64,000 bases of DNA, taken from assembly GCA_002753735.1 (NCBI GenBank), contig PEAN01000012.1, positions 14,575-78,574 on the forward strand, in the 5' to 3' direction. The notes below the pieces were generated by a model. The model worked only from the letters and a program-made list of their open reading frames with translations. It was not told where the DNA came from and searched no databases. The number at the start of each line of letters is the position of its first letter. Position 1 is the stretch's first letter. The stretch comes from Magnetococcales bacterium DCbin4 (GTDB taxonomy: Bacteria; Pseudomonadota; Magnetococcia; Magnetococcales; UBA8363). Made by a program: the position numbers and the translations under genes. Of this stretch, positions 5,762 to 17,350 are shown piece by piece.

Positions 5762-5813
5762 TGGCGTCCCCGGCGCGATTTGAACGCACGGCCTACGGAT
5801 TAGGAAACCGTTG
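5762..5813. repeat. attL: displaced copy of the 3' 52 nt of tRNA-Arg (partial, not a functional tRNA)
   Basis: tggcgtccccggcgcgatttgaacgcacggcctacggattaggaa(a)ccgttg matches 17274-17325 except for one base (a vs t at repeat position 46). Sequence diverges immediately after. Confidence 0.9.
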
Positions 5814-5820
5814 ATGGAGG

Positions 5821-5854
5821 CCAATAAAGGCCAACAAAGGCCATAAACAAAAGG
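5821..5854 (+). repeat. Tandem ~10-bp repeats CCAA(T/C)AAAGG next to the attL core (candidate arm-type or regulatory protein sites)
   Basis: ccaataaagg ccaacaaagg ccataaacaaaagg lies 7 nt after the att repeat. The same CCAACAAAGG unit recurs at 7585-7620. Confidence 0.6.
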
Positions 5855-6007
5855 AAAATCTGGTTTGAAAGTGGTCGATATTGGTCTATAAGGGCCATTG
5901 CGGTTGACAGTTGGTTGACACAACAAAGTCTTGAATGTTTTTTCCTCGGTGCCAGAATTTGAGAATTTTCTTCTCCTGGACGTATCAAAAATGGTACATT
6001 ACGCTTT

Positions 6008-6355
6008 ATGTTACTGATTCGATTTCCTGTTCATTTTTTTAAAAGCGGCTCTGGTTCAGAACCGGTTCGTGACTGGTTGAAAAGTCTGGATCCCCAAGAC
6101 AGGAAAATAATCGGTGAGGATATCAAAACGGTTCAAGTCGGTTGGCCTGTGGGCATGCCGTTGGTGCGAAAGTTGAAACCTGATCTCTGGGAAGTTCGCT
6201 CCAGGTTACAGGGAAGGATTGCACGGGTTCTTTTTACATTTGAAGATGGGAAAATCGTTTTGGTCCATGGTTTCATAAAAAAAACCCAGAATATACCACT
6301 TCAAGATTTGTTTATTGCCGAAAGTCGGATTTCTGAAATAAGGGGACGAAAATGA
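6008..6355 (+). CDS. Type II toxin, RelE/HigB superfamily (phage Gp49-like)
   Basis: 115 aa. FFKSGSGSEPVRDWLKSLDPQDRKIIGEDIKTVQVGWPVGMPLVRKL..LWEVR..GRIARVLFTF..GKIVLVHGFIKKTQ is the typical Gp49/HigB-like pattern. It has a 4-nt ATGA overlap with the downstream HTH gene. Confidence 0.7.
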   Translation: MLLIRFPVHFFKSGSGSEPVRDWLKSLDPQDRKIIGEDIKTVQVGWPVGMPLVRKLKPDLWEVRSRLQGRIARVLFTFEDGKIVLVHGFIKKTQNIPLQDLFIAESRISEIRGRK

Positions 6356-6639
6356 ATGGTTCTTACCTTGGAAGTGATTTTGATGATTTTTTGAAGGAAG
6401 AGGGAATCTTGGCCGAAGTTGAAGCAACGGCCATTAAAAGAGTTTTTGCGTTAAAGCTGAAAAAAATGATGGAAGATAAGAACGTTTCCAAGACTGAATT
6501 GGCTCGGCGAATGAAAACAAGTCGTGCCTCAGTAAATCGGCTATTGGATCCTGAAAATCGTTCTATTACGCTCCAGACTATGGAAGGTGTGGCTCTTGTC
6601 ATGAATGCACGTTTGAAAATTGACTTGGTTCAGGGCTAA
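6352..6639 (+). CDS. XRE-family HTH antitoxin (HigA-like)
   Basis: 95 aa. The HTH is KNVSKTELARRMKTSRASVNRLLDPEN. It is translationally coupled to the upstream toxin, in the toxin-first order typical of HigBA. Confidence 0.7.
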   Translation: MNGSYLGSDFDDFLKEEGILAEVEATAIKRVFALKLKKMMEDKNVSKTELARRMKTSRASVNRLLDPENRSITLQTMEGVALVMNARLKIDLVQG

Positions 6640-6660
6640 GTGAGAATTGTTTAACAAAGA

Positions 6661-7149
6661 TCATGAAAGCAAATCATCTCTGATTTTATATTCGTTTGGA
6701 ATGGCTTCGATGTTCCATCGGACAATCCTGATTCCTGCAATGAAAAAAATCAAATCCCTCTTCTTGTCTTTTTTTTTGTCATGGCTTCCGTCGTCCAGTT
6801 CGATGGCTGAAATAATGTTGAATTCATTGTCACAAACAAGGAAGTCCACCATTTTTTGTCTGAACGTCTCTTCCATGGTGATATCCTTTTTTGGGTTTCC
6901 GCTATTTGCATAAAGGAATCTTCCCAAGGATACCTGGGAAAGAATGATGTGGTCTGGAAAGACATTTATGAGTCGGCGATATAAAATCTGTTCCGGTTTC
7001 GTAAGGGGTTGGGTCCAGTTGATTTCGGTTACATCGAAATTTGCGTGTCGGCGTATTTTTATCACCTTTGCAACTATTGGTTCGAGAATAAAAGCCCATG
7101 CAGTAATACTTGTAGCTAAATTATAGATATTCATGGCGTTTAATTCCAT
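6661..7149 (-). CDS. DUF2726-like (restriction-endonuclease-fold) protein with an N-terminal hydrophobic helix
   Basis: 162 aa. LTKPEQILYRRLINVFPDHIILSQVSLGRFL ... VDFLVCDNEFNIISAIELDDGSHD..KKRDLIFFIAGIRIVRW matches the DUF2726 pattern as I recall it. The N-terminus ITAWAFILEPIVAKVI is hydrophobic. Confidence 0.55.
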   Translation of the reverse strand: MELNAMNIYNLATSITAWAFILEPIVAKVIKIRRHANFDVTEINWTQPLTKPEQILYRRLINVFPDHIILSQVSLGRFLYANSGNPKKDITMEETFRQKMVDFLVCDNEFNIISAIELDDGSHDKKKDKKRDLIFFIAGIRIVRWNIEAIPNEYKIRDDLLS

Positions 7150-7244
7150 TCTACGTATCCTTATAATTTTGCGACAGTTTCATAAACAAAAATCATCATT
7201 GCGGGCAAAATTTTTTCCTACCCATCTTTTCCAAACTCGTCCTG

Positions 7245-7529
7245 CTATCCGGTATCCGATCCTGCTTTTTTGGAGTCCCTGCGCATTCTCTCAATCTCAG
7301 GGCTGATGTGTCCGTGTTCCTCGTCGGTCAGGCCTGTGACCAACCAATAGGCAAATTGGGGCCAATGTTTGCCAATGGCCGTGATAAGATCTTCTGTTGC
7401 TCTTTGGCCACCTACTTCAACTTTTTCAACCATGCTCTTTTTAACACCACAAATTGTGCAAAATTCATGTCTCCCAAAATTTAGGCATTCTCTGATCGCT
7501 CTTATCCGGTTTCCTAATAAATTTTCCAT
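7245..7529 (-). CDS. XRE/CI-type HTH repressor (prophage lysogeny regulator)
   Basis: MENLLGNRIRAIRECLNFGRHEFCTICGVKKSMVEKVEVGGQRATEDLITAI is a classic HTH_3 layout. I prefer ATG at 7529 (cat at 7527-7529). The ORF-track start 7601 would run through the tandem repeats of the switch region. The gene is divergent from the 7628 HTH gene. Confidence 0.65.
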   Translation of the reverse strand: MENLLGNRIRAIRECLNFGRHEFCTICGVKKSMVEKVEVGGQRATEDLITAIGKHWPQFAYWLVTGLTDEEHGHISPEIERMRRDSKKAGSDTG

Positions 7530-7584
7530 CACATATCGAAAATATTTAGACAGTCTGATGATTGATTTGAAACTTGCCGTGAAT

Positions 7585-7620
7585 CCAACAAAGACCAACA
7601 AAGGCCAACAAAGGCCAACG
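7585..7620 (+). promoter_or_regulatory. Switch region: 3.5 tandem copies of CCAACAAAG(A/G) between the divergent repressor and HTH genes (candidate operators)
   Basis: ccaacaaaga ccaacaaagg ccaacaaagg ccaacg lies inside the 98-bp divergent intergenic region 7530-7627. Confidence 0.6.
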
Positions 7621-7627
7621 ACACGCT

Positions 7628-7831
7628 ATGTCATCAGTCTCCGTTCGTCAAGCTTCGATGGGTCCATACATGACTCAAGAGCGTTTTGCAGAGGTGACAG
7701 GGGTGTCGCTTGATGTTGTTCGAGGTTGGGTGAAGAAAGGGTATCTCCCTATTTTTGATCTGGGAAAATATCGGTTGATCAACGTTGCACTGCTTACCAA
7801 AGAGGCTTTGGAACAGGAATACAAAGTCTAG
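7628..7831 (+). CDS. Small HTH DNA-binding protein (Cro/excisionase/AlpA-like)
   Basis: 67 aa. MTQERFAEVTGVSLDVVRGWVKKGYLP is an excisionase/MerR-type HTH. It is the first gene of the rightward phage operon. Confidence 0.55.
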   Translation: MSSVSVRQASMGPYMTQERFAEVTGVSLDVVRGWVKKGYLPIFDLGKYRLINVALLTKEALEQEYKV

Positions 7832-7848
7832 AACCTGAAAAATGAGGT

Positions 7849-8163
7849 TTGGAAGTGGTGTCGGGTTTGTGTTCAGTTGAAGGGGTAGGAAATGTGGTAA
7901 CTAGTGACCAGGAAAATGGTCTTGTTGATAAGGTATCCAAACAACAGCGTTACCGTGAAAAGCAGGGAAAAGAAATGAAACAAAAAGCCCTTTATCTATC
8001 CAAGCGGGCTTGTGAAGTTCTTGATCTATTTGCCGGTGTTGACGGTATGAATCAATCGCAGATTGCTTCTTTGATTATTGAGGCTGCTGGGGATGTTTTG
8101 GAACATGGTAATCCCGTTATTTGGAGTGGTGTCATCAAACAATTGCGGGATCGTTTGGTTTAG
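7849..8163 (+). CDS. Hypothetical phage protein, possible ribbon-helix-helix domain
   Basis: The ORF opens on TTG. An internal ATG at 7975 follows a purine-rich stretch. MKQKALYLSKRACEVLDLFAGVDGMNQSQIASLIIEAA resembles the RHH/CopG layout. Confidence 0.35.
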   Translation: MEVVSGLCSVEGVGNVVTSDQENGLVDKVSKQQRYREKQGKEMKQKALYLSKRACEVLDLFAGVDGMNQSQIASLIIEAAGDVLEHGNPVIWSGVIKQLRDRLV

Positions 8164-8225
8164 ACAATTCCTCTGGATAGACTGCCCAGGGGATGAAATG
8201 AAATGCAGTCAAATGGAGATAAGAC

Positions 8226-8543
8226 ATGAAGATGAGTTTGAACATTGTATCGGTCGAAAAGTTTGAGTTCAAAGGTGAGGATGGCCGGGAGGTGAAGATG
8301 GGTCGTGTCAGTGCGCTTTCTGATTTTGAAAAGACCGATTCAAGGGTTGGTTGTCCTGTTGTCAATTTCAGCATGGATATCGGTTTGTTTGAAACGTTTG
8401 CGACTTTGGGCAAATTCCCTGCGATGTATGATGTTGACGTTGAGTTGCGGGCGGGGGGGCGGGGGAAAGCTTCTTTGTTTGTTCTCGGTGTCGAGCCGGT
8501 GAAGCCTGTTTCTGAAGTTGGTTCAAAAACCAAGAGCGTTTGA
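8226..8543 (+). CDS. Hypothetical phage protein at the position of the inovirus ssDNA-binding protein (g5p/RstB analogue)
   Basis: 105 aa, beta-rich by eye, located just upstream of the coat module. The call rests on position only, with no motif recognised. Confidence 0.3.
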   Translation: MKMSLNIVSVEKFEFKGEDGREVKMGRVSALSDFEKTDSRVGCPVVNFSMDIGLFETFATLGKFPAMYDVDVELRAGGRGKASLFVLGVEPVKPVSEVGSKTKSV

Positions 8544-8560
8544 AGGCTGGGGATCATCGG

Positions 8561-8797
8561 ATGATTTGGCGGTTAATTTGTACGGGTGAAGGAACTCCAT
8601 CACCGATCACAAACGGCGGAAAAGTGCAGGCCTGCGTCGATGGCACCATGCCAATTTGGCAGCCTGAGCAAGGGTTGGATATTTTATCTTGGGATCAAGA
8701 TGCTATTTCAATTGTAATGCTTTCCACCCTGATGTTCTACGTCGCAGGGCTTGGACTTGGTGCAATATTGAGGTTGTTGGGAAGGTTTGGAAGGTAA
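8561..8797 (+). CDS. Small phage protein with a C-terminal TM helix (minor virion/assembly protein candidate)
   Basis: The ORF-track start 8540 is TTG and the first ATG is at 8561. The C-terminus is hydrophobic then basic: ISIVMLSTLMFYVAGLGLGAILRLLGRFGR. Confidence 0.35.
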   Translation: MIWRLICTGEGTPSPITNGGKVQACVDGTMPIWQPEQGLDILSWDQDAISIVMLSTLMFYVAGLGLGAILRLLGRFGR

Positions 8798-8848
8798 GTC
8801 ACAGGCAACGTTGCCAATCAATAATGGTTTTTTTAAGGAGATGGATTC

Positions 8849-9079
8849 ATGAAGAGTTTTCGGGAGTTTTTGCAAAAGGGTGCTGCACTTGGTTCCGGAT
8901 TGGCCGTTGGAGTCGCCACAAGTCCCGCCTTTGCGGCGCTTGACGTGTCGGGTGTGCAAACGGCATTGGACAACAATCTGAGTTCCTATGAAACCGTTGC
9001 CGTGGCCATCATCGGGTTTGTGTTGGGCGTGGCCGTCATCTACGGGATCCTCAGTTTGATCAAGGGCCGTGCACGGTGA
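8849..9079 (+). CDS. Inovirus major coat protein (g8p-like)
   Basis: 76 aa. Signal peptide MKSFREFLQKGAALGSGLAVGVATSPAFA, then a mature ~47 aa with an acidic N-terminus (LDVSG..D..E), a TM core VAVAIIGFVLGVAVIYGILSLI and a basic tail KGRAR. A strong terminator follows. Confidence 0.8.
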   Translation: MKSFREFLQKGAALGSGLAVGVATSPAFAALDVSGVQTALDNNLSSYETVAVAIIGFVLGVAVIYGILSLIKGRAR

Positions 9080-9170
9080 TGCAATGCCTGAGTTGATTTT
9101 GGGGGGACTGTGGGTTGCTTCGTTGTTGGTCGGAATTCATCATGGGCTGACCATGTTGTGAGGAGAAGAA

Positions 9171-9195
9171 GGGGTGCGATGCGCCCCTTTTTTTT
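9171..9195 (+). terminator. Intrinsic terminator after the major coat gene
   Basis: ggggtgc gat gcgcccc forms a 7-bp stem (one G-U pair) with a 3-nt loop, followed by T8. Confidence 0.75.
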
Positions 9196-9204
9196 GTGAA
9201 AGAG

Positions 9205-10680
9205 ATGAAAAAGATTTCAATAATATTGATTATTGTGTTGATTTTTTTGTCGGTAAATAGGCCTAGGCAGGCTGATGCTATTGCTCCCATAGCATGGGGT
9301 ATGTCTATAGCACTTTGGGCTGTTGGGTTGGGTTTGTTGTGGTATGATTCTTTTGGACGTCAGAGTGATTTTACCTCTAAATCTCAACCGGTTACCAAAG
9401 AACAAGCTTCTGGGGCTGGAAGTCCTCCAAAAGTTCAACCAATTTTTAAATTTTTATCATCAGGTTCTCCATATTATTATGAAGGGGATTTTTCTGGCGC
9501 ATTAGATAAGATTATGCAGTATTCAAAAGAGACTGGTTCAAAATGTCAAGATGCATTTTATAAAGCCAGTGAGTTACCTCCTGTTCCAACATCTGGTACA
9601 GGAATAATTTATGTCAAACTTTATACTAATCAATGGCCTTGTACTATTCCAGGTTCTACTGGTTTTGCGCAGTATTTATCTCCGACTATTGGTTATAATA
9701 CTCCAACAACTCCCAGGTGTCCGACAGGACTTTCTGTTCAACCTGATGGTAAATGTGGTGATAGTTCCATGGCTGATGGTAAGCCTGGGATTGGTAGTCA
9801 ACCTGATGGGACGTTTGTTGATCTCATAGATCCTGATGGTATTGGAAGTGATGTATCGTTATCGGATGATAAGAAAAGCGTCAATGTTCCGAGTGTTGAT
9901 AATCCGGATTTAGGGATAACTGGCACGGCACAGTTATCAAAAACAGGTGCAGAAAATATGAACACGAAGATTGATGAAAAATATTCATCAATTGTTCACA
10001 AAGAAGATGGAACCACGGCAGAAGCGCAAGTGACTTTATCCAGGGAAGTTGCTCCGGATGGGTCTGTTGTGAATTCTAGTGAATCTGTTCAGTATGTTGA
10101 TGGTTCAACTCCTCAGGCGGGAGATAGGTTGACTGATTCGTCTTGGGTTGGTTCGGATGGTTCTATTGTTCTTACGGATCCGGTTCCAGGTGGATTGAAT
10201 GACACTTCCGGGGGTTCTGGTTCTGGGGGTGGTGATGGAACGGGTGGAACCGGTGGAACGGGTGGAACCGGTGATTTGTCAGGGCTGCAATCGACTTTGG
10301 ATGGGATAAAAAATGGTCAATGTGGGGGTGTTGGACAACCGGAGTGCAAGGTGGATCTCGGTGATGTCTCTGGGGTTTCAGTTCTTGATAAGCGGTCGTC
10401 GGTCAATTCGGATGCGCTTAATCCGGATGGTCAGGTAACAAAGCAGGATGAATTAAAAGCAGAAATAGATGAATTGAAAGAACAGTTGAAGGTTGGCTTT
10501 GAGAGATTGGTGAATTTGAATCTGAGTGGATCAGAGTATTTACCATCATGGAGTTTTTCAACACTTGGTTCGACGTTTACAATTGATTTGGCCAGATATG
10601 CAGAATTGCTTTCTCCGATTGCTGATTTAATTTTGTTTTTTACATCGGTAACCTGCCTGTTTATTATCATTGGAGATTAA
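9205..10680 (+). CDS. Minor coat/adsorption protein (g3p-like) with a Gly-rich linker
   Basis: ATG at 9205 (the track start 9196 is GTG). Signal peptide MKKISIILIIVLIFLSVNRPRQADA. Central linker SGGSGSGGGDGTGGTGGTGGTGD. C-terminal hydrophobic anchor ILFFTSVTCLFIIIG. It occupies the g3p position. Confidence 0.65.
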   Translation: MKKISIILIIVLIFLSVNRPRQADAIAPIAWGMSIALWAVGLGLLWYDSFGRQSDFTSKSQPVTKEQASGAGSPPKVQPIFKFLSSGSPYYYEGDFSGALDKIMQYSKETGSKCQDAFYKASELPPVPTSGTGIIYVKLYTNQWPCTIPGSTGFAQYLSPTIGYNTPTTPRCPTGLSVQPDGKCGDSSMADGKPGIGSQPDGTFVDLIDPDGIGSDVSLSDDKKSVNVPSVDNPDLGITGTAQLSKTGAENMNTKIDEKYSSIVHKEDGTTAEAQVTLSREVAPDGSVVNSSESVQYVDGSTPQAGDRLTDSSWVGSDGSIVLTDPVPGGLNDTSGGSGSGGGDGTGGTGGTGGTGDLSGLQSTLDGIKNGQCGGVGQPECKVDLGDVSGVSVLDKRSSVNSDALNPDGQVTKQDELKAEIDELKEQLKVGFERLVNLNLSGSEYLPSWSFSTLGSTFTIDLARYAELLSPIADLILFFTSVTCLFIIIGD

Positions 10681-10683
10681 GGA

Positions 10684-11046
10684 ATGGATTTCAAAACTGC
10701 AATATCAAATAGTTTGCAGTCGATATATAATTTTTTCGAGTCAATCTATTTGTTTCTGTTTGATGGGGGGATTTCTGAATGGGTTGGAAAGGTAATAAGC
10801 TATTTCTATGAAGTATTAATGGTTTTATATTATAGCTTGATCAAAATAGTTTTGACTGGATTGGTTGCTTTTATCGATGGTTTGTATGAATCGATGAACA
10901 TTGCTGGTGCGGTGGAAGGGTACTGGCAGAATATTGATGAAGGATATCGTGGGATCATGGTGTTTTTTCATGTACCTTTAATTTTGTCGATGTTGTTGTC
11001 TGCGTTTGTCCTCAGAAAGATTTTGAAATATACGGAAATATTTTAA
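10684..11046 (+). CDS. Small multi-TM virion/assembly protein (g6p-like)
   Basis: 120 aa with several hydrophobic segments. It sits between the g3p-like and Zot genes, with a TAATG 1-nt overlap with zot. Confidence 0.5.
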   Translation: MDFKTAISNSLQSIYNFFESIYLFLFDGGISEWVGKVISYFYEVLMVLYYSLIKIVLTGLVAFIDGLYESMNIAGAVEGYWQNIDEGYRGIMVFFHVPLILSMLLSAFVLRKILKYTEIF

Positions 11047-12245
11047 TGCCTATTACAATTTATTACGGTCCTCCAGGAGCCTACAAAACGTCATCGGCGC
11101 TTTTGGATTTCTTTGCTGATGCTGCCTTTTCAGGACGGACTGTGATGACAAATATTCGTGGTTTGGATGATCGTGCACGAGTGGTTTCGGTGCTGGAAAA
11201 AAGATTTGAGGCTAAAGGGTTTGGTCCATGGCGTACCCAAGGGAAAAAGGTTCCTGATCATTGGCAGTTGATTTACAGGCAATCGGAAGATTCAAATGGG
11301 ATTAAAGAATGGCAAACGTTTTTTCATGACTTACCGCGGGGCGCATTGATCATTATTGATGAAGCACAACGCATTTATCGGAAAGAACTGACCGCAAAAC
11401 AGCTTTCTGAGTTCGATTATCCCGGTGGTCCGGATCGAGCATCGGAAATGGATGTGCCTGCTGATGTAAGAACAGCTTTTGAAATGCACCGGCACTGGAA
11501 TCTTGACTTTGTACTTACGTGTCAAAATTTGTCCCAATTGCATGAGTTGATCAAAAATACTTCCGAAATGGCTCATAGTCATCAGAATCTTGCATCTGTA
11601 TTGCTATTCATGAAGGGGCATTACGTGGTCCGGACTCATCCGGCGGATACGTATCTTGCGGAAAAAAATATTGTTCTTCAGCGGAATCGAGTGATTCAAA
11701 AATGGATTTTCGATTTATACAAATCTACTGCAACGGGGATTGTCAGTGACACCAACACCGGAACAAGCATATGGCGAAATCCAGCTATCGCGATCCCAGT
11801 TGTTGGGCTTGTTCTTTGCGTCATATACCTTTTATTTTTCGCGAAAATTCCCTTTCTTGGCAAAGATCATACTGCCGGTGTCAAGGATACTGATAAAGCC
11901 CTTGGCAATAGTGGCTCTGTACCTGTATCGAAAGATCGTAATGCGGTTGATAAGGGTAACGTTCAGAATACTGATGGTCCTGGTGTTGGTTTATCTTTCT
12001 TTGAAACTGGTCATGTGAAGAATAAGATTTTCCTGGTCGGGCTGATTGGCGGAAAAGCAAGATTCGAGGTTGAAACTGATGATGAGATGGTAGGTTTAGT
12101 CTATGATCAGGATGTTATAGAAAGGATTGGATACAAGGTTGAGATATTCACAAATTGTCTGGCCAAGCTTACAAAAGGTGGGGTTGATGAATACGTTCGT
12201 TGTAAGGGAATTGAAGGTGAAAAGAAAAATCGCGGTATTCTTTAA
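11046..12245 (+). CDS. zot: Zot-family assembly ATPase (g1p-like)
   Basis: MPITIYYGPPGAYKTSSAL..GRTVMTNIRGL.., Walker B LIIIDEAQ, and AFEMHRHWNLDFVLTCQNLSQLH parallel the CTXphi Zot motifs as I remember them (GAPGSYKTSGAL, ITNVRGL, FIDECG, AFDMHRHHGWDI). There is a central TM, AIAIPVVGLVLCVIYLLFF. Confidence 0.85.
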   Translation: MPITIYYGPPGAYKTSSALLDFFADAAFSGRTVMTNIRGLDDRARVVSVLEKRFEAKGFGPWRTQGKKVPDHWQLIYRQSEDSNGIKEWQTFFHDLPRGALIIIDEAQRIYRKELTAKQLSEFDYPGGPDRASEMDVPADVRTAFEMHRHWNLDFVLTCQNLSQLHELIKNTSEMAHSHQNLASVLLFMKGHYVVRTHPADTYLAEKNIVLQRNRVIQKWIFDLYKSTATGIVSDTNTGTSIWRNPAIAIPVVGLVLCVIYLLFFAKIPFLGKDHTAGVKDTDKALGNSGSVPVSKDRNAVDKGNVQNTDGPGVGLSFFETGHVKNKIFLVGLIGGKARFEVETDDEMVGLVYDQDVIERIGYKVEIFTNCLAKLTKGGVDEYVRCKGIEGEKKNRGIL

Positions 12246-13827
12246 TGTTTTTATTTTATTTCTTTGTTTCAATGGGGTGGCATTTCCAGAAGGACGGTTC
12301 ACAACCGTGAATTTTCATAATATTCCGTTGGCCGAAGTTGCAGAGTATGTTTCTCAAACTGCCAAAGTTGGAATCATTTTTTCTGGTATTGAAGATCGAA
12401 TAACCTGGAATCAGACTTTTCTGATCGATAATTTGTTTTTGGTTTTCTCGTCGGTTTTGAATGCTCAGGGGTACTACTTTGCTTCTGAGGGGTATGGATT
12501 GTGGTCAATTCGAAAACATGATCAAGGGACGGACATAAACTCAGGAGCACATCTTGTCATGACCTTGAGAAATGTATCAGCAAATGATTTGAAAGAATCG
12601 GTTAATTTGTTATTTGGGAATAAAATAAGAATTGCAGGTGGAGAGAAAGAAGGACGGGTCATTATCATAACAGGGCAACTTTCATTATTGCAAAAAGCAT
12701 TTTCAATCATTCAACAATTTGATGATTCATCAGAGCCGGTGAAGGATCATGAAATTGTGGATATATCTCACGAATTGACCAGGAAGATTGAACCACGTTT
12801 AAGGTCCGTACTTGGAGAAACCGTTGGCATAACTTCCAATCCTTGGTCGAAACAAATATTGATCAAAGGTACTCCATCACAAAGGCTTTTGGCTCGAGCG
12901 GTGGTTGAGATGATGGATAAACCACAGGCAGATTTAAGGCGCGTTGTCCGGTTGCACAGGTTGACGGCTTCGGATGTGGTGACAGTTATAAAGGAGCTTG
13001 CCGAAGCGGTTGTAGTGCATGCCGTTGGTTCTCAGGAGGTTCTGTTGACTGGACCATCCAGCGAAGTGCTGAATCTTGTCGACGTCGTGCGGGATCTTGA
13101 TGGAGGCCGTGAACAGGTGCGTGTTGATGCAATCATTGCGGTTTTGTCCGATGATGGACTTGAACAACTGGGAACCAAGTTGGAAATGACAGATTCCGGA
13201 CTCGTGGAAAATTTCGTTGCTCAAGGACTGGCAGTTGATGGTCCAAATCTGTTGATGGATTTGGTAACAGGCCGTCTGAAAGTTCACATCAACGCTTCCA
13301 AAGGGGAATCAACGGGACGTGTCTTGTCATCCCCATCTTTGACGGTTCTTGACGGTCAAACTGCATCCATATTGGTTGGTCAAAACATACCTCTCATTGC
13401 CAAGCATCAATCAGGAACGTCAGGTGACAAAGAATCACATGATGGAGTCGAGGTAAATCGTGTTGATGTCGGTTTGTCCTTGCAGATCACACCAGGTATT
13501 GAAGGGGACTTCGTGAGGTTGAAGATTTTGCAAGAGGTTTCCGGGATATCCCAACAAAACGTTGGCGCAGTAGACATTTCAACCAACGTACGAAGGATTG
13601 AAACATCGGTTTTGGTACCAAACGGTCAGACCTTATACCTGGGGGGGGTACGTGAAGATGAGACGGGAGCAACAGATTGGAAAGTTCCGATCCTGGGAGA
13701 TTTGCCAATTGTTGGGATGGTTTTTCAATCGAGTTCTCAATCAAGGAGGGGATCAAATCTTGTAATTTCAATTAAACCTTCTGTGATTTCAAGGGATGGT
13801 GATGGAGTACGAGAGTTAAGTTTATAA
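12187..13827 (+). CDS. Phage secretin (g4p-like; GspD/PulD-family outer-membrane channel)
   Basis: C-terminal secretin signature: TLYLGGVREDE..WKVPILGDLPIVGMVFQSSSQSRRGSNLVISIKPSVI. I prefer the start at 12187 (MNTFVVRELKVKRKIAVFFNVFILFLCFNGVAFP, signal-like) over the ORF-track 12127. It overlaps the zot 3' end. Confidence 0.8.
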   Translation: MNTFVVRELKVKRKIAVFFNVFILFLCFNGVAFPEGRFTTVNFHNIPLAEVAEYVSQTAKVGIIFSGIEDRITWNQTFLIDNLFLVFSSVLNAQGYYFASEGYGLWSIRKHDQGTDINSGAHLVMTLRNVSANDLKESVNLLFGNKIRIAGGEKEGRVIIITGQLSLLQKAFSIIQQFDDSSEPVKDHEIVDISHELTRKIEPRLRSVLGETVGITSNPWSKQILIKGTPSQRLLARAVVEMMDKPQADLRRVVRLHRLTASDVVTVIKELAEAVVVHAVGSQEVLLTGPSSEVLNLVDVVRDLDGGREQVRVDAIIAVLSDDGLEQLGTKLEMTDSGLVENFVAQGLAVDGPNLLMDLVTGRLKVHINASKGESTGRVLSSPSLTVLDGQTASILVGQNIPLIAKHQSGTSGDKESHDGVEVNRVDVGLSLQITPGIEGDFVRLKILQEVSGISQQNVGAVDISTNVRRIETSVLVPNGQTLYLGGVREDETGATDWKVPILGDLPIVGMVFQSSSQSRRGSNLVISIKPSVISRDGDGVRELSL

Positions 13828-13937
13828 TTTGGTTTTGCTATTGACTTTGCTTTTGACTGTTGTTTTTTTAAATATATAAAAATAAAAATAAGCTGGTTTT
13901 GACTTTTAAAATGTCTTAAGTGATAAGAGAAATAGCC

Positions 13938-13981
13938 TGTTGGAAACTTGTTGGAAACTTGTTGGAAAATTGTTGGAAAAA
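13938..13981 (+). repeat. Left iteron set: 4 x 11 bp TGTTGGAAA(C/A)T
   Basis: tgttggaaact tgttggaaact tgttggaaaat tgttggaaaaa, head-to-tail, in the non-coding region after the secretin gene. Confidence 0.85.
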
Positions 13982-13987
13982 CGGTTT

Positions 13988-14067
13988 TTTTTTCCTTTTT
14001 GAACGATCCCTTCTCCGAATCATTACAATCCAGTGTGCTTGTCCGGGATCGTTCAAAAAGGAAAAAA
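13988..14067. promoter_or_regulatory. Perfect 23-bp-stem hairpin (34-nt loop): candidate replication origin or packaging signal
   Basis: Left arm ttttttcctttttgaacgatccc (13988-14010) is the exact reverse complement of the right arm gggatcgttcaaaaaggaaaaaa (14045-14067). Confidence 0.8.
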
Positions 14068-14072
14068 TCGTT

Positions 14073-14116
14073 TTTTCAATAATTTTTCAATAGGTTTTCA
14101 ATAGGTTTTCAATAGG
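14073..14116 (+). repeat. Right iteron set: 4 x 11 bp TTTTCAATA(A/G)(T/G)
   Basis: ttttcaataat ttttcaatagg ttttcaatagg ttttcaatagg. The reverse complement (CCTATTGAAAA) loosely mirrors the TTGGAAA core of the left set. Confidence 0.85.
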
Positions 14117-14142
14117 CGGGCGATACAGAACAAAATTAAGTT

Positions 14143-14406
14143 ATGAACAATGATTTGGTTGAAAAGAAATGGTGCGCTATGTGTGATTTTGATGTGTATG
14201 GTCTGGAGGGTCTTGCCTTGGAATTTATGATTGAACAGAGGAATAAACATTCCTATGAGTTGGAAGATTATTTTGAAGGTATTGCTGCTTTTTTTGAGGG
14301 GGAGGATAGGTTTCCGGATGGGGTATTTGAGGAGTCGGATTCTCAGATTGCATTTATGAATGGTTGGGGAATGGCAGAAAAATTTTGTTTGAGAGGAAAA
14401 ATATAA
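14143..14406 (+). CDS. Hypothetical small acidic phage protein
   Basis: 87-aa ORF with an ATG start, immediately after the iteron region. No recognisable motif. Confidence 0.4.
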   Translation: MNNDLVEKKWCAMCDFDVYGLEGLALEFMIEQRNKHSYELEDYFEGIAAFFEGEDRFPDGVFEESDSQIAFMNGWGMAEKFCLRGKI

Positions 14407-14463
14407 AAAGTTCTAGAAAATGTGTCAATTGGTTACATCAAAACATCAACAGATAGGTGATCT

Positions 14464-14847
14464 ATGTCTTTTTTTGTTGAACAAAATATTAGGTGGGTTG
14501 CGAATGAATGTTCAAATGGATTCGTTGAAATAACGCCATATTTCTTTAGATCCTGTTCTGCGGTTGCATATTTTGTGAATTACACTGATGCAGATCTTTT
14601 TCGCAGGTCAAAAAATATGGAAGATTTTTTACGGTCCATGGAGGAGGTATTGGGGAAGGGCATGCCTACCTGTCCTGAAGCGCAATTGCAGGTTTGGAAT
14701 GAACTTCGTTCCTTGGTTGTTTCTTGTCTCTCTTCTTCGCAAGGTGATGCCCCTGAGCGAGGAGCGCCAGCGACGAGCGATGAGGGGCATCACCTTGTTA
14801 AGAGCTTCCCAAGGAGGTTATCCCCAATGGGCAAGACGTCCCTGTAG
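14464..14847 (+). CDS. Hypothetical phage protein (3' third doubtful)
   Basis: 127-aa ORF. Its last ~35 codons run through a GC-rich 15-bp-stem hairpin (14740-14797) that looks like a DNA structural element rather than coding sequence. Confidence 0.3.
   Translation: MSFFVEQNIRWVANECSNGFVEITPYFFRSCSAVAYFVNYTDADLFRRSKNMEDFLRSMEEVLGKGMPTCPEAQLQVWNELRSLVVSCLSSSQGDAPERGAPATSDEGHHLVKSFPRRLSPMGKTSL
14740..14797. other. GC-rich perfect 15-bp-stem hairpin upstream of rep (candidate nick site, second origin or other cis element)
   Basis: caaggtgatgcccct (14740-14754) is the exact reverse complement of aggggcatcaccttg (14783-14797). The 28-nt loop contains gagcga twice. A second 7-bp hairpin aagacgt/acgtctt lies at 14833-14855. 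Confidence 0.7.
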
Positions 14848-14912
14848 CACGTCTTATAAACTAGGTCGGACAACTGAGCGTAAGTGGTCATTAGTGGCCA
14901 TTGCTAAATTGT

Positions 14913-16208
14913 ATGGAGTTCGGAAAAATGCCTGAAAAGTGGAAATTTTGCAATAGATACGATCCCTATACCATGATCACCGGTGACTCTGACGAATTTC
15001 CGACTGATCCAAAGGGAAGTTTGTTCGAATCGGGTACTGGTCTCCACGATCTGAGCCATATCCATGTGTTGTCATCAACGGTTGATACGGTCAAACAGAT
15101 TTATCATGGTGTAATCAAGTTGAAATGGTTAGAAAAAATTGAGCGCTTTCTTGATTCTAACGAAGAATTCCTATCTGATGGTCCTTATGGTCCCTGGCAC
15201 ATTTCGAGAATCGGTAAAAGTTCAGGTTACCAATTGAAACTTCAAAATAACGAGTTGGGCTTTGTCATCTTGTTAAAGACCGTCTATGCCAAGCATGATA
15301 AACCAGCAAGTCATCTCAAAATTGAAGTTTCTCCACACAGGATTCGTTCTTCTGGGTCTTGTGGGGCTTTGCAGGGGAATTTGGACAGCATTGCCATTTG
15401 GCTGTTGGAGGAGGGCTGGAAGTATGTTGGTGTTGCCGTTCACCTTGCTGTTGATGTTCAGGGTTGGAAACCTAAAATGGATTTTATGCAAAAGTTGGTT
15501 ACAAGGACACGGACAACCAAGGATTTTCGTGGTATATCCGATTTTCAGCTTGATAATTTATCCGAAATATCAACAGTATACGATAATGGGCAGTCTTTCC
15601 TGTTTGGTAAAGCGTCTGCTTTGCAAATGGCCGTCTATCGCAAAGATCTTGAAATATCAAAAAGGGATAAAGTTGATTATTTTCATGATGTTTGGAACAA
15701 AGATGGGAAGGATTGGTTTGAGTCAGATAAATGTGTTTGGCGTATTGAGGTGAGGCTTCATCATGGCATTATGCGCGAGATTGGACTGGGGCTTGGAGGC
15801 AAAATTGAGTCCTTCCGGGAGTCTGAAAGTGTGCTGACCGATGTTTGGCGGTATGGGTTGGATCGTAACCGTTTGATGCTAACTGAGCGATATATTGATC
15901 CTTTTTGGCAATTATTGATGCAGGATGTTCAATTCTGCTTGCCACCTAGTGGTGTTGCGGTGCGTCGAGTAAAAAAAAAGGATATGTCCAATGCAGGAAA
16001 AAATGTGGCAATGATGATTGGCAACATTGTTACTCTGGCCGCTCGTCGTCAAATGGATGCTTTTCAAATTGTTCATATGATTCAGGATATGGCTTTGTAC
16101 GAAGATGTTCGGGATTATTTGAAGTCCAAGGGGTATCGTGAAGGTCGGCTTTTTGAGATGGTTGAGAGGGGGTTGAAGATTCGTCGTCTCCTTGGCAAGG
16201 CTGCTTAG
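14913..16208 (+). CDS. Rolling-circle replication initiator (Rep_trans/RstA-like)
   Basis: VGVAVHLAVDVQGW (the hHhAhD metal-binding-type motif) and CVWRIEVRLHH resemble the Rep_trans / phage CRI family. It is placed after the structured intergenic region. The start is uncertain: TTG 14901, ATG 14913, or ATG 14928, the last preceded by GGAG. Confidence 0.6.
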   Translation: MEFGKMPEKWKFCNRYDPYTMITGDSDEFPTDPKGSLFESGTGLHDLSHIHVLSSTVDTVKQIYHGVIKLKWLEKIERFLDSNEEFLSDGPYGPWHISRIGKSSGYQLKLQNNELGFVILLKTVYAKHDKPASHLKIEVSPHRIRSSGSCGALQGNLDSIAIWLLEEGWKYVGVAVHLAVDVQGWKPKMDFMQKLVTRTRTTKDFRGISDFQLDNLSEISTVYDNGQSFLFGKASALQMAVYRKDLEISKRDKVDYFHDVWNKDGKDWFESDKCVWRIEVRLHHGIMREIGLGLGGKIESFRESESVLTDVWRYGLDRNRLMLTERYIDPFWQLLMQDVQFCLPPSGVAVRRVKKKDMSNAGKNVAMMIGNIVTLAARRQMDAFQIVHMIQDMALYEDVRDYLKSKGYREGRLFEMVERGLKIRRLLGKAA

Positions 16209-16209
16209 A

Positions 16210-17235
16210 TTGGCCATCAAGAAACATTCATCCGGTTGGCAGGTGGATATCCAGCCTGGAGGCCGCGGTTGCCGTCGTTATCGGAAGACGTTTTCAACCA
16301 AGGGGGAAGCCCTTCGGTGGGAAATTTTCATGAAGGATCGTCTTCGGATCAATTCGGAATGGTTACCGGCTAAGAAAGATGGGCGGCACATGTCGGAATT
16401 GGTTGATGTTTGGAATAAGCACCATGGGCAACGGCTTCATTTTGATCAGTATAAACGTCTCGTTGCGTTAAGCCAGCGACTTGGGGATCCGGTTGCTGCA
16501 AGTTTCGATGTTCAACATTTTGCTGCTTACCGGGAATTGCGGTTGGCCGATGGGTTGACGCCATCGACCCTCAACCGGGAACATTCCTATTTGCGGGCCA
16601 TGTTTCATGAATTGAAACGGTTGGGACTTTGGTCAGGGGAAAATCCCATGGGAGGACTCCGCCAGTTGAAAGTTCCTGAGCGTGAATTGTCCTACCTCTC
16701 AACTGAGCAAATCCAGAAATTATTGGTGGAAGTGGACAAGAGTGGAAACCCGGATGTGGGCTTGGTCGTTCGGATCTGTTTATCGACCGGTGCTAGATGG
16801 GGTGAGGCAGAGGGGTTGAGGGCCGAACAGGTCCATGAGTGGAGGATTGATTTCTACGGTACCGGGACCAAGAGTGGCAAAAATCGCACTGTTCCTGTTT
16901 CCCATGATCTTGTCCAGCAACTCCGAGGGCGGGGTGTTTCGCATGGCCGGTTGTTCTCCAGTTGTGCTGGGGCTTACCGATCTGCGGTCAAGCGTATGGG
17001 ATTGGATCTTCCCGATGGCCAGTTAACCCACGTCTTGAGACATACTTTTGCATCTCATTTCATGATGAATGGTGGGAATATTCTCGTTCTGCAAAAAATT
17101 CTTGGTCATCAAAGTTTGGCTATGACCATGCGATATTCCCACCTTTCTCCCGATCACTTGAAAGAATCGATCAGGTTTAACCCTCTTGCAAATTCCGTTG
17201 ACACTTCGTTGACAGGAACGTCGGCGGTTGGGTGA
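16210..17235 (+). CDS. int: Tyrosine recombinase (phage integrase)
   Basis: C-terminal catalytic region: GARWGEAEGL (R), HVLRHTFASHFMMNGGNILVLQKILGHQSLAMTMRYSHL (H-x-x-R ... H ... Y). The N-terminus (L)AIKKHSSGWQVDIQPGGRG.RRYRKTFSTKGEAL is typical of this integrase family. A TTG at 16210 lies directly after the rep stop (TAG 16206-16208). The ORF-track start 16192 is also TTG. Confidence 0.85.
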   Translation: MAIKKHSSGWQVDIQPGGRGCRRYRKTFSTKGEALRWEIFMKDRLRINSEWLPAKKDGRHMSELVDVWNKHHGQRLHFDQYKRLVALSQRLGDPVAASFDVQHFAAYRELRLADGLTPSTLNREHSYLRAMFHELKRLGLWSGENPMGGLRQLKVPERELSYLSTEQIQKLLVEVDKSGNPDVGLVVRICLSTGARWGEAEGLRAEQVHEWRIDFYGTGTKSGKNRTVPVSHDLVQQLRGRGVSHGRLFSSCAGAYRSAVKRMGLDLPDGQLTHVLRHTFASHFMMNGGNILVLQKILGHQSLAMTMRYSHLSPDHLKESIRFNPLANSVDTSLTGTSAVG

Positions 17236-17273
17236 TTTTTGGCGGTCTTGTTTCTGTAAGTCTTTGTAAAAAA

Positions 17274-17350
17274 TGGCGTCCCCGGCGCGATTTGAACGCA
17301 CGGCCTACGGATTAGGAATCCGTTGCTCTATCCGGCTGAGCTACGGGGAC
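17274..17350 (-). tRNA. tRNA-Arg (anticodon CCT), CCA-encoded; attR core
   Basis: Reverse complement: GTCCCCG TA GCTC AGCCGGATA GAGC A ACGGA TTCCTAA TCCGT AGGCC GTGCG TTCAAAT CGCGC CGGGGAC G CCA. It folds as a complete 77-nt cloverleaf with a 7-nt anticodon loop, anticodon CCT. Confidence 0.9.

Follow-up and report, generated by a model that had tools for sequence, protein, structure and literature searches.

Phased AAWGRCCA units at three loci of a Pf-like prophage in a Magnetococcales bacterium, predicted sites of a Cox-like excisionase-regulator

Can one protein, through one short recognition element, couple the excision, the lysis–lysogeny switch and the replication of an integrated phage? 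The question is raised by a stretch of 64,000 nucleotides from Magnetococcales bacterium DCbin4 (contig PEAN01000012.1, positions 14,575 to 78,574), called here the window, with position 1 at its first letter. Positions 5814–17273 form an 11.5-kb element with 43% G+C (vs. 54% in the 4.52-Mb genome), flanked by 52-nt repeat copies (5762–5813 and 17274–17325). With its filamentous-phage genes (Inovirus coat B, a g6p-like DUF2523 protein, the assembly ATPase Zot, a secretin of its own and a tyrosine integrase), and with the gene order of Pseudomonas phage Pf8, the element is an integrated Pf-like filamentous phage (inovirus). The original prediction took the heptamer CCAACAA (TTGTTGG on the other strand) as the recognition element and placed it at the attL arm, in the intergenic region between the repressor gene and a helix-turn-helix (HTH) gene, in an array of iterons ascribed to the origin and, in degenerate form, next to attR. 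The core of the idea, one protein for excision, switch and replication, probably holds, but without the heptamer and without the iterons: the element appears to be the unit AAWGRCCA, phased at 10 bp, and the third target is a pair of such units just upstream of the replication initiator gene. We give a probability of about 0.65 to the reading in which Xis, the 67-amino-acid (aa) HTH protein encoded next to the repressor-like gene, is a dual excisionase-regulator of the Cox/XisF type acting at these three loci, with the iterons excluded.

Relatives of the element were gathered via the replication initiator (Rep) and Xis from same-order genomes, IMG/VR contigs and metagenome contigs. The nearest relative is in a genome of the same genus (G004), with Xis 85% and repressor 96% identical to those of the window. 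The Xis of G017 is 63% identical and those of two metagenome relatives, L061 and L062, 75% and 65%; two contigs that encode the identical Xis (L059 and L060) are pieces of this same prophage at 100% identity and contribute no sequence differences. From the comparison of switch and att regions among these relatives, the conserved unit can be defined as AAWGRCCA followed by two variable bases, with a period of 10 bp. The heptamer CCAACAA spans the CCA of one unit, both variable bases and the AA of the next unit. It thus contains the very two bases at which true units differ from one another (AC, AT, GT, CT), which argues against the heptamer as the thing recognized. In the switch of the same-genus relative, before xis, the units read CCAGTAATGA CCAGTAAAGA CCAATAAAGG CCAAC, and no CCAACAA is found in it.

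A weight matrix for the phased units was built from 25 units of the relatives only, to limit circularity. On its scale, true sites reach 10–14.7 bits, and 6 bits are reached by 0.2% of genome positions. Among ~9 million genome positions, the six best phased pairs are all within the prophage, at 14902(−), 7590(+), 7600(+), 5889(−), 5826(+) and 5899(−). Pairs of AAWGRCCA at exact 10-bp spacing are likewise found genome-wide only at the three prophage loci (the 1053 single units lead one to expect ~0.12 pairs). The heptamer greatly understates how closely att arm and switch are linked: the 12-mer GGCCAACAAAGG is present in exactly two copies in the 4.52-Mb genome, one in the attL arm and one in the switch. 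The heptamer is not equally frequent elsewhere, in keeping with what the original prediction had required of a genome-wide count: there are 31 copies in the 64-kb window (17.0 ± 4.3 in shuffles), 13 of them inside the element, and the density is 1.13 per kb in the element vs. 0.32 per kb in the genome. This enrichment is real; its sources are the tandem arrays and the AT-richer composition of the element, and it does not discriminate between readings.

The first of the three loci is the attL arm. The tandem CCAA(T/C)AAAGG units expected there were found as AGGCCAATAA-type units at 5818–5847 (3.1 copies with Tandem Repeats Finder, TRF), and they start 5–7 nt past the end of the att repeat at 5813. 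In the frame of the conserved unit they form the triplet GGAGGCCAAT, AAAGGCCAAC, AAAGGCCATA (5816–5845, plus strand), predicted sites for an excisionase, or recombination directionality factor (RDF), whose pairs score 22.6 (fifth genome-wide) and 17.6. The relatives-only matrix exposed a second, inverted triplet that the original prediction did not contain, AATGGCCCTT, ATAGACCAAT, ATCGACCACT (5870–5899, minus strand), with the fourth and sixth pairs genome-wide (23.8 and 21.1). Both triplets sit between the att core and the predicted integrase arm-type sites of this arm (two GTTGACA on the plus strand at 5903–5920, starts 5903 and 5914, 11-bp spacing). A homologous attL arm is present in the same-genus relative, with AGGCCAATAT and AGGCCATAAA despite a different tRNA core, and the inverted triplet is kept there too; G017 has an inverted GACCAATAAAGACCA in its attL arm. 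Of the two att arms, only that of attL has the units, and with the relatives-only matrix there is no scoring AAWGRCCA unit in the attR arm. The degenerate inverted copies proposed at 17244–17269 (minus strand) are there as letters, but they score 4.4 and 3.2 bits, which is background, and their 16-bp distance puts them out of helical phase; they are not supported as sites of the same motif.

The second locus is the switch. The repressor-like gene (94 aa; 7245–7529, minus strand; phrog_147 transcriptional regulator, E 1.8e-16) and xis (67 aa; 7628–7831, plus strand; phrog_1864, E 2.3e-22) are divergent, as in Pf phages, with a gap of 98 bp, and the pair is kept in more than 15 relatives. The gap does contain the 3.5 tandem units that had been noticed in it, as 3.5 copies of CCAACAAAGG on the plus strand at 7585–7619 (CCAACAAAGA, CCAACAAAGG, CCAACAAAGG, CCAAC; TRF, 96% matches). 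In the AAWGRCCA frame these are three units, at 7590, 7600 and 7610, and the array ends 8 nt before the xis ATG. The switch pairs rank second and third genome-wide. The array is kept in relatives with Xis 63–85% identical: the switch of G017 reads CCACTAATGA CCAACAAAGG CCAAT (that is, CCACTAATGACCAACAAAGGCCAAT), and those of L061 and L062 are similar to the G004/G017 type.

The third locus, absent from the original prediction, is the pair AATGGCCACT, AATGACCACT at 14883–14902 (minus strand), which is the top 10-bp-phased pair of the whole genome (28.4). It is found between a nick-type hairpin (14833–14855) and the ATG of rep at 14928. The gene rep (14928–16208, plus strand) encodes a PA0727-like replication initiator (phrog_1159, E 1.3e-100), and its product (426/435 aa) is 32–33% identical to the replication initiation proteins of Pseudomonas Pf phages (E about 1e-57). 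The open reading frame opens at TTG 14901, with a conserved GGAG and then ATG 14928 further on, and the public gene call on an identical contig gives a protein of 426 aa; the start is likely the ATG at 14928, the shorter form, and therefore the units are upstream of the gene and not within it. A homologous pair is present in both copies of the same-genus genome and in G017. In the latter, two TGGTCATTAG occur just upstream of rep (rep-proximal pair CTAATGACCA, twice), and the reverse complement has the 13-mer CCACTAATGACCA in common with the switch of the same phage.

The nick-type hairpin itself (AAGACGT-CCCTGTAGC-ACGTCTT, plus strand) has a loop CCTGT(A/T)NC that is invariant across all relatives, including Pseudomonas Pf8. 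By inspection, the stems vary but remain complementary among Magnetococcales, Methylobacter and Pseudomonas Pf phages (GACGT/ACGTC, GAAGT/ACTTC, GGAGT/ACTCC, TGGGT/ACCCA, TTACG/CGTAA). The hairpin is the probable plus-strand origin, or nick site, of PA0727-type initiators.

Which protein would read these units? A search with the 67-aa protein hits PHROG 575 ("Cox-like excisionase and repressor", E 1.3e-10), and by tblastn its identity is 37–50% with the excisionases of Pf phages and 43% with Cox of HP2. The AlphaFold2 model shows an HTH with a beta wing, that is, a winged helix (confidence, pLDDT, 78), and in a sequence search of the PDB the best match is P2 Cox (4lhf), a weak one (E 0.021), so that the similarity to P2 Cox is marginal. 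The predicted recognition helix is VRGWVKKGY here and VRGWIRKGY in the Xis of Pf phages, and both phages carry AAWGRCCA-type sites. In Methylobacter phages, the helix of Xis is VGGWIDQGY and two AACCAGCCA are found upstream of xis instead; two of the relatives (L029 and L030) have additionally ACCAACC repeats in the attL arm. The Rep of the Methylobacter phages is about 40% identical, and the three-site pattern is not universal, because their rep-proximal repeats do not resemble their own switch repeats.

The closest known system is that of XisF4 and XisF5 in Pf4 and Pf5 of Pseudomonas aeruginosa, with a homologous protein, the same type of phage and the same arrangement (repressor and xis divergent, a PA0727-like rep, then int, then a tRNA). 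In Pf4, XisF4 is reported to repress pf4r, to activate the initiator gene PA0727 and to promote excision, and its gel-shift targets are both att sites (attL and attR), the promoter of PA0727 and that of its own gene (PMC7379572). The regions bound there (att, own promoter, rep promoter) correspond to the places of the phased units here. Since the binding of XisF4 was reported via gel shift on whole fragments, without footprint or motif (PMC7379572), the AAWGRCCA consensus stands as a prediction. The same matrix was applied to a Pseudomonas Pf prophage (AY324828.1, L063), where the top phased pairs are in the attL arm (AATGGCCAGTAATGGCCA), directly before xis and directly before PA0727 (AATGTCCATTAATGTCCA), in the stretches 40–125, 2600–2641 and 8265–8290. 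Because the matrix places its pairs in this way, the predicted three-site architecture is conserved between the element and the Pseudomonas prophage. There are differences from Pf4 and Pf5: the host here is of the Magnetococcales, the phage encodes a secretin itself and has a long hairpin whose arms are made of repeats, and the attR arm, which XisF4 shifted too in Pf4, is here without a scoring unit.

In P2 and 186, Cox and Apl are RDFs that also control the lysis–lysogeny switch (PMC7498355, PMC3936717), and their sites are direct repeats 10–11 bp apart at att and switch, distinct from the operators of the immunity repressor (PMC7498355). The element has the features by which Cox, Apl and XisF are known, namely an HTH protein of the excisionase family, whose gene heads an early operon opposed to the repressor, and phased repeats in the att arm that return in the switch, apart from the repressor operators. 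The resemblance to P2 Cox and 186 Apl lies in the direct repeats one helical turn apart at att and switch and in the PHROG 575 match. On the other hand, P2 and 186 are tailed phages with double-stranded DNA and face-to-face switch promoters, whereas the genes here are divergent over 98 bp, and Cox activates the satellite P4, not its own rep gene. The design, which had seemed unusually economical, is that of Cox (P2), Apl (186) and XisF4 (Pf4) (PMC7498355, PMC7379572). The observation is not due to chance, and the three-site layout is a further instance of this known type of dual excisionase-regulator.

In the mechanism that we propose, Xis monomers would bind head-to-tail on AAWGRCCA units one helical turn (10 bp) apart. 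On the attL triplets (5816–5845 and 5870–5899), they would bend the arm and promote excision. On 7585–7619, upstream of their own start and facing the repressor gene, they would shut the repressor promoter and/or exert autoregulation, and on 14883–14902 they would switch on the replication initiator gene. The binding, the stimulation of excision and the regulation of promoters are predicted by analogy with the gel-shift and reporter data on XisF4 (PMC7379572). Units of AAWGRCCA at a 10-bp phase may also serve XisF-type excisionases as their operator throughout the Pf-like inoviruses, from those of Magnetococcales to those of Pseudomonas, a more modest proposal than the one on the hairpin stem given below. 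What is gained is an operator prediction, at the level of sequence, for the Pf-type excisionase-regulator, with consensus, phasing and three target regions; if it holds, the lysis–lysogeny circuit of a Pf-like inovirus could be read directly from sequence. The Pf-type regulatory module is extended to bacteria of a magnetotactic lineage.

Several points weigh against this reading. The AAWGRCCA regular expression was refined after the sites had been seen, a circularity that the relatives-only matrix lessens without abolishing it. The Pfam matches of Xis to HTH_17 and Phage_Cox are weak, below the curated cut-offs, and when the Xis model was compared with PDB structures in Foldseek, nothing reached significance (best E 0.56); the leading entries include Pukovnik Xis and BldC, which at that level is not evidence. 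Scans of the switch and intergenic region for sigma-70 promoters gave no usable promoter, which leaves the regulatory effect in the switch without a promoter to refer it to. The iterons and the switch units have CCAACAA in common. Lastly, every Pf-like relative has, after its nick hairpin, repeats of ~10 bp with CATTR, and this is true also of the Methylobacter phages with their different switch repeats. The last two points bear on two other explanations, the use of the heptamer by one protein at more places and the reading of the units by Rep.

In the first of these, one protein would read CCAACAA/TTGTTGG at the att arm, the switch, the iterons and, weakly, attR, and the iterons would be a fourth binding array coupled to origin or packaging. 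The array on which this depends is present, at 13938–13979 (3.8 copies of 11 bp, TRF); of the four iterons said to carry TTGTTGG, three do so and the first has CTGTTGG. The heptamer is exactly common to three iteron units and three switch units, with P ~0.01 per array for a random array of 11-mers to share a 7-mer, a match that was picked out of several arrays in hindsight. The core TTGTTGGA is moreover kept in two copies of the same-genus genome while the spacer bases vary, and RDFs have relaxed specificity and short operators of ~6 bp (PMC7498355). Against these points stand the absence, in the iterons, of the invariant G-R before CCA, their period of 11 bp and not 10 bp, and their scores, which do not reach 4.4 bits with the relatives-only matrix, the attR copies being at background. 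The two motifs also part in the relatives: in G004, the only xis switch is without CCAACAA and the iterons retain TTGTTGG, and in G017 the switch motif is present and there are no such iterons. For that reason the match of the heptamer between iterons and switch is probably coincidental, with a small share of the probability left for a weak recognition by the same protein. On the whole we find this explanation unlikely.

The iteron arrays are fully explained in another way, as the two arms of a strand-asymmetric hairpin. The array 13938–13981 and four TTTTCAATAGG at 14073–14116 are imperfect inverted copies around a perfect inner palindrome, and together they give a long imperfect hairpin (13935–14117, plus strand) directly 3′ of the secretin gene. 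As single-stranded DNA, the plus strand (which, from inovirus biology, we take to be the packaged strand) has a fold of −51.7 kcal/mol (z −10.3), an uninterrupted hairpin of ~180 nt in which no iteron base is left unpaired and some of the pairs are G·T. On the minus strand over the same positions the G·T pairs become A·C mismatches (−38.4 kcal/mol). The same asymmetry is seen in the copy of the same-genus relative (−40.7 vs. −30.1). In the Ff phages, the packaging signal is located after the secretin gene (gene IV). Like the hairpin that holds the packaging signal of Ff (f1/M13/fd), the present one is long, imperfect, favored on the gene-carrying strand, and intergenic directly after the homologue of gene IV, which is what is looked for in the packaging signals and complementary-strand origins of inoviruses. 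Unlike the Ff hairpin, it has ~180 nt, four 11-nt units per arm and many G·T pairs, and no sequence similarity, and its function is putative. By analogy, the hairpin is probably a packaging signal or a complementary-strand origin. The nick-type hairpin is ~850 bp away from the array, and G017, with the same Rep family, is without such iterons. The "origin iterons" are probably structural arms of a hairpin, outside the operator set, and the replication target moves from the iteron array to the pair at 14883–14902. There is a slim chance that the same winged-helix protein also reads the CCAAC cores found every 11 nt on the hairpin stem. If this were true, one regulator would act at att, at the immunity switch, at the rep promoter and at the hairpin of packaging or complementary-strand origin, and excision and replication would be tied to packaging. 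The contigs of the same-genus genome break at or beside the iteron hairpin.

In the second explanation, the AAWGRCCA units would be sites of the PA0727-like Rep, which would bind the origin at the rep-proximal pair and feed back on switch and excision. Initiator-binding sites of rolling-circle origins are typically placed in this way, as established for gpII of Ff, and in Pf-like phages the nick hairpin is always followed by a phased pair or trio of ~10-bp repeats, also in those with other switch repeats. For that last reason, the rep-proximal pair may be primarily a site of Rep, or may be common to Rep and Xis. As a whole, this second explanation is improbable: the Rep of the window is just 32% identical to that of Pf and the motif is nonetheless retained, and across clades the motif follows the recognition helix of Xis. 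In Pf4, the att sites, PxisF4 and the PA0727 promoter are all shifted by XisF4 (PMC7379572), and head-to-tail phased repeats between the att core and the integrase arm sites are a signature of RDFs (PMC7498355).

Among the candidate binders first considered (the repressor, the HTH protein and the integrase), the HTH protein fits best; the two others appear to have sites of their own. The switch repeats could be operators of the 94-aa repressor, with the att-arm copies letting it block excision, and the array does lie in the repressor/xis intergenic region; some phage repressors bind direct repeats. This is quite unlikely, given that relatives with a repressor 44–53% identical differ completely on the repressor side of the gap and retain the AAWGRCCA units beside xis. 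The sequences on that side differ in every relative (TCGAAAT-type, TGCACGGTGCA, TTACCCAT, ATCCAT palindromes etc.) while the phased units are constant, and G004, where the repressor is 96% identical, retains the TCGAAAT-type repeats. A candidate for the repressor operator, weakly assigned, is the inverted repeat ATCGAAAATATTT (I2, 7535–7547), with TCGAAAT/ATTTCGA-type repeats that recur in the switch of G004. A role of the repeats as arm-type sites, bound by the integrase through its N-terminal domain, is very improbable, although they lie within an att arm and the integrase has an Int_N domain, since AAWGRCCA units occupy one arm where both would be expected, arm-type sites are not expected at the switch or at the rep promoter, and a better candidate exists in GTTGACA, found twice per arm at 11-bp spacing and nowhere else in the element, a pattern mirrored by two TTCGACA in the Pf prophage.

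The GTTGACA copies in the element are four (5903, 5914, 17197 and 17208), and the attR pair (17197–17214, plus strand) is in the 3′ end of the integrase gene (16192–17235, plus strand; Pfam Int_N and Phage_integrase). In AY324828.1, the two TTCGACA of each arm occupy the same relative places. The att repeat at the attR end is the 3′ 52 nt (17274–17325) of a tRNA-Arg(CCT) (17274–17350, minus strand, ARAGORN), and the attL copy (5762–5813) is the displaced 3′ part of this tRNA, with 45 nt identical and 52/53 matching. In the same-genus genome there are at least two related filamentous prophages (L055 = C141, L036 = C106, L010 = C129), and the C141 phage has arm sequences homologous to those of the window, yet it is inserted at a different tRNA core.

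In the switch of the window, a 10-nt inverted repeat (AGTCTGATGA at 7552–7561 and TCATCAGTCT at 7631–7640, 9/10 complementary) flanks the array and overlaps the first codons of xis. Its counterpart in the same-genus relative is TCGACTG/CAGTCGA. The pairing could mask the xis start in a stem of the mRNA, or it could be a site at the DNA level.

Other arrangements of the module occur among the relatives. In G035 (C208, L057), there is a prophage remnant with a repressor, the first ~40 codons of xis with phased units upstream, a short fragment of integrase and a tRNA-Gln. The IMG/VR contig L020 (the same stretch as L041, a metagenome-assembled genome of Methylobacter) contains two tandem Pf-like prophages, in which an rpr-xis...rep-int module is directly followed by a second rpr-xis module and another rep. 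In two Methylobacter relatives (L021 about 3830, L026 about 1957), a second AACCAGCCA(T/C)AACCAGCC pair is found 1.3–1.5 kb downstream of xis, and in the switch regions of others (L014, L019) the xis leader is duplicated, with the repeat pair and the start region present twice around an extra open reading frame.

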